Assembly: GCA_029856045.1 (NCBI GenBank) | Contig: JAHQWG010000016.1 | Location: 1-64,000, forward strand | Reading direction: 5' to 3' | Length of the DNA: 64,000 bases | From: Promethearchaeia archaeon | GTDB taxonomy: Archaea; Asgardarchaeota; Lokiarchaeia; Sigyniarchaeales; SOKP01 | In this document: piece by piece, positions 11,107 to 38,810 of the stretch | Numbering within the stretch: the first letter of the stretch is position 1 | How the letters are laid out: each line of letters starts with the position of its first letter | Position numbers and translations under genes: made by a program | Notes under the pieces: generated by a model | Database searches by the model: none | What the model was told of the DNA's origin: nothing | The model's input: only the letters and a program-made list of their open reading frames with translations

Positions 11107-12223
11107 GGAATTCTTGATAAATATCTATTAAATTTTTACCAAAAGACTCCATAGAATACTTTTTAATTAAATCTTGGGATTTATTTATTAAATTTTTTTT
11201 TATTTCTTCTTTCTCAAAATAATATTTGATTTTTTCTGCCAATAATTCAGGTTCTTTCGGGGGAACAAAAATGGCATTATTACCTAATATCTCTCTATAT
11301 GCTGGAAGATTTGAACAAATTACTGGAGTTCCACATGCAATAGATTCGATTGGAGTTAAACCAAATCCTTCGGATGCATTAGAATAAGTAACGAACACAT
11401 CTGCCATGGAATAGTAATACTGAATCTTTTCTTCTGGAATCATTCCTACAAATTTTATATCTTTATATTTTTCTTTCCAACTTTGATATATATTTGCCAT
11501 TTTTAATGTAGGTTTTCCCCCAATAACTAAATTTAAATCAGATATTTCCTTTTTTACTAAGTGATAGGCTGCAATAAGATCATCTATGCCTTTATAAAAT
11601 GCGACACGTCCAATATAAAGAATAGTTGGTCCCTTTAAATTCAATTTTTCTTTTAGAGAAATGCCTTGTTTAGGATAAGGTTTAAATTTTGGATCGATTG
11701 GATTATATACACATTTAATTTTTTTAATATTAAGCCGTCGAATGTAATATTTTAAACCCATTCTAATTATATTTGATGGAGTAATTATTTTTTTTGCTCT
11801 AAAAGCATTTAATTTTACTAACATTGGTAAAATTGGGATTTTTGAAAAACTGGTTTCGAAAGGTCCTAGATCGTGAATAGTAGTAAGATATTTTCTAAAA
11901 AGAAATGGAATATTCACCCTAGATCCATTACCATGAATTATATCAAATTTTTGCTTGTTTAAAATTCTGAAAACATTTAATATAAATTGAGGGAACCAAA
12001 AAAACCGCTTTCTAATAATATTTATTTGAATTATATTTGGATCCTCTAAATCAATATTCCATTTTGCAGTGATAACCTTTATGTTATAGCCATTATTGTT
12101 TAAATAATTATATATAGAAGTAGCAATTTTTGCAGATCCATCTTTTTTATCAGGAAAAAAGGCAAGAGATACAAGACAGATTTTTATGTGTTTATTTTCG
12201 ATTGATTTGCCTTTTTTTTGCAT
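11096..12223 (-). CDS. GT4-family glycosyltransferase
   Basis: YIGRVAFYKG, EGFGLTPIESIACGTPVI. Confidence 0.92.
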   Translation of the reverse strand: MQKKGKSIENKHIKICLVSLAFFPDKKDGSAKIATSIYNYLNNNGYNIKVITAKWNIDLEDPNIIQINIIRKRFFWFPQFILNVFRILNKQKFDIIHGNGSRVNIPFLFRKYLTTIHDLGPFETSFSKIPILPMLVKLNAFRAKKIITPSNIIRMGLKYYIRRLNIKKIKCVYNPIDPKFKPYPKQGISLKEKLNLKGPTILYIGRVAFYKGIDDLIAAYHLVKKEISDLNLVIGGKPTLKMANIYQSWKEKYKDIKFVGMIPEEKIQYYYSMADVFVTYSNASEGFGLTPIESIACGTPVICSNLPAYREILGNNAIFVPPKEPELLAEKIKYYFEKEEIKKNLINKSQDLIKKYSMESFGKNLIDIYQEFLKI

Positions 12224-35058: not shown

Positions 35059-35622
35059 TTAACCCGAAATTGAAATTATTTCAGCACTTCTTACAATAAA
35101 ATTTGTATCAATATAGAGTAATAGAGCATGGTCTTGATGATTAAAAACTAAAGGAACAAGTTTTTTAGTTGAATTCTCGATTAAACTATTCTTTACATAT
35201 ATTTTAAGAGTTTTTTTACAATATTTACAAAATGCATCTATAAATCTTCCATTTTTACTTGGCACAATTTTTATAGCTTTCTCTACTACTGAGTTAAAAC
35301 CTTTAAAAAAATCATCGTAAATTGCGTCATAGGAATTTAAGATAGATTCTCCATAGATTTCAATAAATTTATCGGAGATATAATCCAAAATCGCCTCAAT
35401 TAACTGAAATTGAACAGATTTATCGGTAACAATCACAAAAACTATATCTTTTTTTTTGATAAATACAACTTTAGAGTCAGCTTTGTTTATATGATAATAT
35501 CTAGATTCTTGAGGAACATCTTTAGCGAGAGTATATTCAAAAAAAAAAGCTTTTGGTAAATTTTTTTGTTTCCAGGAAAAATAGGTGTTTTCGAAACATT
35601 CAATATTAATAAAATAAATCAA
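35059..35622 (-). CDS. Putative longin-like protein with C-terminal CxxC/HxxH domain
   Basis: IVFVIVTD...ILDYISDKFIEIY...FKGF longin-like pattern; CKYC...HQDH..LYID.NF.VR; start uncertain (may extend to 35652). Confidence 0.5.
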   Translation of the reverse strand: MIYFINIECFENTYFSWKQKNLPKAFFFEYTLAKDVPQESRYYHINKADSKVVFIKKKDIVFVIVTDKSVQFQLIEAILDYISDKFIEIYGESILNSYDAIYDDFFKGFNSVVEKAIKIVPSKNGRFIDAFCKYCKKTLKIYVKNSLIENSTKKLVPLVFNHQDHALLLYIDTNFIVRSAEIISISG

Positions 35623-38508: not shown

Positions 38509-38632
38509 ATTTCCTTTTATTCCATTCCATTGTTTTTATTAAAATTATCCACATTTTTTCAATATTATGAATTCTTTTTTTCAATGCTTCTTCGAACCTT
38601 TGAGCTTTAATTCTAAAAATATTTTCTGGATA

Positions 38633-38697
38633 TCAAGAGAGAACAAATCCATAAAAGTTATTAAAAGAAAAAAAGACTCAGGTTCATTCTCTCTTGA
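38633..38697 (-). promoter_or_regulatory. Putative attenuator hairpin enclosing a U-tract in the leuS leader
   Basis: TCAAGAGAGAA (38697-38687) is perfectly complementary to TTCTCTCTTGA (38643-38633); T7-C-T4 at 38674-38663 lies in the loop. Confidence 0.65.
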
Positions 38698-38698
38698 A

Positions 38699-38779
38699 TT
38701 AAAGTAATAACAATAATACCACTACTAAGAGTAGTACAAATAACAATATGTTTTGTACTTTTTTCATCAAGAGAGACAT
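38699..38779 (-). CDS. Putative leuS leader peptide MSLLMKKVQNILLFVLLLVVVLLLLL
   Basis: 26 codons with 12 Leu, ending in 5 consecutive Leu; same strand as leuS, 190 nt upstream; below the ORF-track size cutoff. Confidence 0.7.
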   Translation of the reverse strand: MSLLMKKVQNILLFVLLLVVVLLLLL

Positions 38780-38802: not shown

Positions 38803-38810
38803 CTTTTAAA
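38803..38810 (-). promoter_or_regulatory. Candidate TATA box for the leuS leader transcript
   Basis: TTTAAAAG at -31..-24 relative to the leader ATG, compatible with a leaderless start; weak because the genome is AT-rich. Confidence 0.35.

Follow-up and report, generated by a model that had tools for sequence, protein, structure and literature searches.

What does the RNA ahead of leuS in the Asgard archaeon Promethearchaeia archaeon (a Promethearchaeota MAG) do, given that it carries a short leucine-rich reading frame, three boxes with mutually exclusive pairings and a U tract? To answer this question, we analyzed a 64,000-nt stretch of its DNA (the window; contig JAHQWG010000016.1, assembly GCA_029856045.1) together with related genomes. 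A first-pass annotation of the sequence had described the boxes as a mutually exclusive RNA switch in which ribosome position selects the fold and so the accessibility of the U tract, for instance to aCPSF1/FttA. We found that the described elements are real, and that the leader belongs to a family with a conserved, covarying core. It resembles the ribosome-read amino-acid gauges of bacteria, although how it switches the gene is unproven.

Architecture of the leuS leader

The leader was read on the minus strand, and its elements are as follows.

38803..38810, minus strand: TATA-like element of the leader promoter, 31 nt before the ATG of the short frame (sORF); a near-leaderless transcript is inferred
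38699..38779, minus strand: leader sORF with the ATG at 38779-38777, 26 codons and the stop TAA at 38701-38699; 12 Leu, 5 Val and 1 Phe, the last five codons all Leu
38767..38776, minus strand: box 1 (seg0), directly after the ATG, codons 2-4 of the sORF; 5' arm of helix P0
38681..38697, minus strand: box 2 (38697-38687) plus extension (seg1), starting 1 nt after the stop; 3' arm of P0 and 5' arm of helix P1
38663..38674, minus strand: U7-C-U4 tract (U7 at 38674-38668, C at 38667, U4 at 38666-38663), in the P1 loop and in the 5' strand of helix P2
38633..38650, minus strand: conserved 9-mer GGATTTGTT plus box 3 (38643-38633) (seg3); 3' arm of P1
38594..38685, minus strand: helix P2, in which 38685-~38655 (including the U tract) pairs with ~38625-38594 (ending in GGUUC), with box 3 in its apical loop
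35728..38508, minus strand: leuS, bacterial-type leucine-tRNA ligase (926 aa), the gene behind the leader

The boxes, the short frame and the U tract all lie where the first-pass annotation had placed them, so its observation holds; as a small correction, the conserved 9-mer that leads into box 3 lies at 38650-38642. A repeat search revealed that box 2 and box 3 are complementary at 11/11 positions and box 1 and box 2 at 10/10 positions, that box 1 and box 3 form an 11-nt direct repeat, and that an 8-bp AGTACAAA/TTTGTACT pair is present. The exact 10-mer occurs three times in the window, all within 144 nt, and 16 times in the 3.34-Mb genome (29% G+C), against 2 for the reversed control. In the minimum-energy fold the 2:3 stem extends to 17 bp with one bulge, and its duplex energy is -22.2 kcal/mol, whereas the box 1:box 2 duplex is -16.4 kcal/mol (z -2.6). 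No Rfam family, T-box included, reached gathering score anywhere in the window, and a tRNA scan of the window found none.

The gene behind the leader scores 974.8 bits against TIGR00396 (leuS_bact; cut-off 548.4), and LeuS proteins of 89-96% identity occur in Promethearchaeota MAGs. It is the only leuS found in the genome, as neither tblastn with an archaeal-type LeuS N-terminal half nor tblastn with the window's own LeuS found a second one. The core of the enzyme is bacterial-type, with TIGR00396 matching residues 4-804, but its last ~320 residues align to the very end of the archaeal-type profiles (TIGR00395 and NF008957 match 605/609-926). The nearest bacterial relatives are Smithella/Syntrophales at 56-61% identity, which suggests an old transfer with a mixed C-terminal domain; no Leu-run frame was found upstream of leuS in the bacterial relatives (Smithella and others). 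Just downstream of leuS, the 187-aa protein at 35059-35622 (minus strand) gave weak hits below cut-off to Longin and SRP-alpha N-terminal domains and is possibly one of the eukaryote-like trafficking proteins of Asgard archaea.

Conservation of the leader in related genomes

To understand whether the leader is under constraint, we compared it with genomes of the same genus. Three of these (G004, G001 and G002) keep about 320 nt of leader at 84-88% identity, while a fourth (G003) lacks it. The sequence further upstream is unrelated, and in G004 and G001 the nearest upstream ORF is 466 and 472 nt from leuS on the opposite strand. The frame keeps its 26 codons in G004, G001 and G002; against G004, nine codons differ, of which six changes are synonymous, and four of the five changed tail codons remain Leu. 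The changes in the boxes are transitions that keep G-U pairs on this strand only, with one C-A mismatch near a helix end. The two hairpins that the first-pass annotation had placed inside the short frame were not examined outside the genus. A second lineage with bacterial-type leuS (genus g6) has a different frame at the same place, which ends in five or six Leu codons and is followed by a hairpin with other arm sequences but the same 9-mer, GGATTTGTT, in the 3' arm.

BLASTN of both leaders over the 135 genomes of the same family brought in many more loci. A covariance model of the P1 hairpin, built from 14 sequences (model R1), found about 155 copies in 103 of the 135 genomes, one to three per genome. 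The window copy was hit at 38629-38699 (minus strand) with 24.9 bits and an E value of 0.008 in 307 kb; it has the P1 hairpin with the 9-mer in the 3' arm, the U-rich loop and the sORF stop at the 5' arm, but it is a divergent member that is missed by the stricter genome-wide filters. A weak match at 11983-12054 (plus strand; 16.9 bits, E 0.66) is most likely chance. BLAST and nhmmer found no other copy in this genome except T-rich loop matches on two contigs (C10 and C44), taken as spurious, and a genome-wide scan for short frames ending in an amino-acid run plus a T tract found no convincing second case. In five genomes of sister families of the same order the best hit had an E value of 0.067, so no member was found there.

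The related loci shared a common anatomy. A frame of 24-31 codons, with a polar start and a tail rich in Leu, Val or Ile, stands at 91 of 93 related loci, and its stop lies 0-6 nt from the 5' arm of P1 or inside it. An A-rich stretch plus a TATA-like box lies 29-36 nt before the ATG in all classes of the family. This spacing implies a near-leaderless transcript, but no transcription start has been mapped, which leaves undecided whether the sORF is the leaderless first frame. A T run of five or more stands in the loop in 79 of 91 members, a median of 21-23 nt after the stop in the four largest classes (16 and 23.5 in the two small ones). A further short frame at 38581-38652 (minus strand), which starts in the 3' arm of P1, owes its ATG to the context of the 9-mer; most classes read ACG there, so it is not conserved as a frame and is unlikely to be a conserved coding frame.

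The first-pass annotation had named covariation across homologous leaders among its checks, and P1 is conserved and covaries. Across 93 relatives, 92.8% of cells are paired, 11 of 14 pairs show compensatory changes, none of 500 shuffles reaches the observed values, and slid controls give 27-50% paired; the alignment was fitted to the model, which favours the structure. In contrast, pairing of the start of the frame with box 2 (P0) is significant only in the window's class (class A) and in class C of genus g11 (z -2 to -5), whereas elsewhere z is near 0. The three-box arrangement is therefore real, but box 1 is an addition to the core.

A second conserved helix and predicted folding

We also found a second conserved helix, P2, which the first-pass annotation had missed. 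The stretch from the last four bases of the P1 5' arm through the U run pairs with a purine-rich stretch downstream of P1, with a mean duplex energy in the family of -17.1 kcal/mol (mean z -3.1). P2 is weaker in the window itself, at -12.6 kcal/mol (z -1.7). On a plain MAFFT alignment of 68 loci, not fitted to the structure, 79% of cells pair against 48-54% when slid, 12 of 20 pairs have compensatory changes, and four of five measures exceed all 500 shuffles. P1 and P2 share four bases and interleave, so that either they compete or they form a pseudoknot. We favour competition, because the outer pairs of P2 use bases of P1, but a pseudoknot holding P1 together with the core of P2 is not excluded. 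U-tract accessibility is therefore set by P1 versus P2 and not by the 2:3 stem alone.

The predicted fold of the window RNA depends on transcript length. A transcript ending at the U tract folds into P0, one ending 5 nt past box 3 folds into P1 (16.7 expected pairs), and one that includes the further segment seg4 folds into P0 plus P2, with no P1. From the stop codon onward, without box 1, the P1 state is more stable than the P2 state (-33.9 against -30.4 kcal/mol), so any ribosome that keeps box 1 away from box 2 should favour P1, while free RNA goes to P0 plus P2.

Folding with ribosome footprints, which had also been proposed in advance as a check, revealed no output at the leuS start. A version that allowed pairing across the ribosome was discarded, and the corrected versions show no change in accessibility of the leuS start region in the window. 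Its unpaired probability is 0.67-0.69 in all states, and the mean of the bacterial-leuS class is 0.52 against 0.53. Some other classes do differ: with P2 forced, the downstream start region is more open in class C (0.81 against 0.58) and in 22 against 5 members of the archaeal-leuS class. There is also no G+C-rich hairpin followed at once by a U run, since the U tract begins 12 nt after P0 and lies inside P1 and P2, and in the window P2 is followed by an A-rich stretch.

Downstream genes and composition of the leader tails

To understand whether the frame is linked to leucine, we compared the genes behind the 91 loci with a called sORF. The loci are distributed as follows.

Archaeal-type leuS (TIGR00395/NF008957): 54 loci
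Bacterial-type leuS: 5 loci
FrhB/Fer4/TrmB fusion: 11 loci
Small acidic proteins of no known family: 21 loci

Homologous leaders thus precede two non-orthologous leuS types. Before leuS, the last ten residues of the tail hold 5.9-6.8 Leu and 0-0.4 Ile; before the fusion gene they hold 4.2 Ile; before the small proteins they hold Val plus Leu. This is what codon sensing predicts, although the classes are clades, so the independent leuS associations are few, about three. The leucine link is not exclusive, as the fusion and the small acidic proteins have no evident tie to leucine, and the tail of the window closely resembles that of class C, which precedes a small protein. The Leu codons of the tails are mostly UUA, the commonest codon (76% against 49% in leuS), with no rare-codon signal.

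The fusion (L209:409-1860 and 10 further loci of relatives) is a ~480-aa protein with a 4Fe-4S domain, FrhB_FdhB N and C domains and a TrmB-type helix-turn-helix, and why a redox/regulator fusion should follow an Ile/Val-rich leader is unexplained. In class D (L137:1653-1838, L143 and L139), small acidic proteins of 45-62 aa with no family in Pfam or NCBIfam follow the leader behind a strong GGAGGTG site; in several loci the only codon at the right spacing is ACG, so a non-canonical start is possible. Several genomes of genera g11 and g2 (e.g. G023, G024 and G015) carry both leuS types; in them the leader stands before the archaeal-type copy, while the bacterial-type copy has a short (~130 nt) leader-less upstream gap.

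Interpretation and alternative explanations

We interpret the element as a cis-acting, ribosome-read leader of the leuS messenger, an attenuator-like RNA switch, with a probability of roughly 0.55. The parts, their conservation and the three alternative helices are established by sequence, folding and comparison, whereas the start of transcription a few nucleotides before the frame, translation of the frame and selection of the fold by the ribosome are inferred. In this view, a ribosome stalled for lack of charged tRNA-Leu would sit on box 1, which also holds Leu codons, or between box 1 and box 2; P0 then could not form, box 2 would pair with box 3 (P1), and P2 would be kept from forming. A ribosome that runs through and leaves would let the RNA settle into P0 plus P2. 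We take the stalled state to raise leuS expression because this is the cell's only LeuRS, so the direction of control is argued from physiology and is not shown. The analysis does not identify the controlled step, which could be termination at the U tracts, nuclease or FttA access, RNA stability or re-initiation; no RNA run was found that contains the stretch, and four public runs compared with it gave only identical DNA contigs or short unrelated pieces, so that 3' ends at the tract, ribosome occupancy and amino-acid-dependent premature transcripts were not measured.

The interpretation of the first-pass annotation is partly supported. It is indeed the leuS leader of an archaeon, box 2 can pair with box 1 or box 3 but not both, the box 2:box 3 hairpin with a U tract in its loop is conserved and covaries, and the stop codon is tied to its 5' arm, as selection of the fold by ribosome position requires. 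However, P2 had been missed, box 1 pairing is confined to two clades, and an action of aCPSF1/FttA was not examined. The U tract may be a pause or termination signal whose exposure is set by P1 against P2, as the first-pass annotation had guessed.

The main rival, which we consider unlikely, uses the same parts with the opposite sign. In such a coupling gauge, the U tract 24 nt after the stop would be a pause or termination site; a ribosome that keeps up would reach the stop just as it touches the polymerase and would either shield the nascent RNA or drive formation of P2, which hides the tract, so that leuS is on when translation is fluent. A stalled ribosome would leave naked RNA and an exposed U tract (P1), and the transcript would be ended, for instance by FttA/aCPSF1, in a polarity-like control. 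The conserved distance from stop to U tract places, by our estimate of footprints, a terminating ribosome against a polymerase sitting on the tract; the U run is kept even where its P2 partner is G, giving U-G pairs, so it has a role of its own; and the more open start regions with P2 forced in several classes also fit. However, this control would lower the only LeuRS when Leu-tRNA is short, a self-reinforcing failure, and in the window the start region does not change between states.

It is also unlikely that the frame encodes a small hydrophobic peptide with its own function, with the hairpin and U tract as its 3' end and leuS transcribed from a separate promoter further down. The N-terminal residues are conserved across classes with different downstream genes, the window peptide has a 16-residue hydrophobic stretch, a U7 tract after a gene is what an archaeal terminator looks like, and TATA-like AT-rich stretches lie before leuS. 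In most classes, however, the hydrophobic tail is only 7-10 residues and holds Asp or Gln, too short for a membrane span; the module is always placed before another gene on the same strand, 50-135 nt from its start; P2 reaches beyond the would-be terminator and covaries; and the make-up of the tail tracks the downstream gene. Somewhat less likely still is recognition of a structured leader, possibly a P1+P2 pseudoknot, by a trans factor (LeuRS itself, another protein, or a tRNA as in T-boxes), with the frame secondary. The 9-mer and the U run are conserved in sequence beyond what pairing needs, and the loop lengths do not, by our estimate, exclude a pseudoknot, but no T-box match was found in the window, the same core before genes other than leuS makes a LeuRS- or tRNA-Leu-specific ligand unlikely, and the conserved start, length and stop position of the frame are left unexplained. 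A chance or relic repeat, for example remains of a small mobile element, is very improbable. The genome is A+T-rich, polypurine/polypyrimidine words pair in many registers, and with one mismatch allowed the 10-mer is not over-represented in the window (9 against 5.8 expected); against this, the three exact copies are clustered, the boxes are kept in four genomes of the genus and in 14 genomes of another genus, the pairing covaries, and the element is single-copy in this genome. The retained leader, the family-wide copies and the covariation already contradict this reading.

Comparison with known systems

Among bacterial leader-peptide attenuators of aminoacyl-tRNA synthetase genes, the nearest precedents are E. 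coli pheM-pheST and the attenuators predicted before leuS of Streptomyces avermitilis and S. coelicolor (PMC1262725). As in these, a short frame with cognate codons precedes a synthetase gene and is followed by alternative helices, with ribosome position as the presumed signal. Here, however, the host is an archaeon, no terminator hairpin is directly followed by a U run, the U tract lies inside one helix (P1 loop, P2 stem), the helices interleave (1:3 and 2:4) rather than overlap serially (1:2, 2:3, 3:4), and the regulatory codons run right up to the stop, which touches the first arm. The branched-chain amino-acid leaders of enterobacteria (leuL, ilvL and ivbL) and the ilvB leaders of Actinobacteria (PMC1262725) likewise have runs that mix Leu, Val and Ile and form families before several genes, but those genes are biosynthetic operons rather than leuS, a redox/regulator fusion and small proteins of no known family, and there is no sequence relation.

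In the leaderless poly-Cys short ORFs of mycobacteria (bioRxiv 10.1101/834739), the sensory frame is the first of the transcript, stalled ribosomes are said to block an RNA structure, and many loci share one design ('ribulon'); in our window no change in accessibility of the start region is predicted. T-box leaders of leuS in Firmicutes have the same physiological task, sensing the charging of tRNA-Leu, but with a different sensor, tRNA binding with no leader peptide. The T7-C-T4 tract on the coding strand has the run of five or more T of archaeal oligo-U termination signals (factor FttA/aCPSF1), but it stands in a 5' leader and is alternately looped out (P1) or paired (P2). Full-text literature searches revealed no description of regulated use of such a signal and no report of leader-peptide attenuation in archaea.

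Implications

Leader-peptide attenuation depends on the coupling of transcription and translation and is a textbook bacterial device. As a tentative and more far-reaching reading, Asgard archaea of this family may run a set of ribosome-read attenuators (a 'ribulon') for branched-chain amino acids whose geometry is not the bacterial one, in which an oligo-U signal is alternately exposed in a hairpin loop or buried in a competing helix according to where the first ribosome stands on a leaderless mini-gene, which would set premature termination or cleavage of the leuS messenger. This would be the first case of leader-peptide attenuation, and of regulated oligo-U termination, in Archaea. A conserved, covarying switch tied to a sensory mini-gene in Asgard archaea, the closest prokaryotic relatives of eukaryotes, would show that these organisms use ribosome position to control genes. 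It would also give a natural substrate for testing how archaeal oligo-U termination and FttA respond to RNA structure and to a trailing ribosome, and would supply a compact RNA element of about 200 nt with clear predictions for mutants. The family also marks the small proteins and the FrhB-TrmB fusion of unknown role as likely members of a response to branched-chain amino acids.
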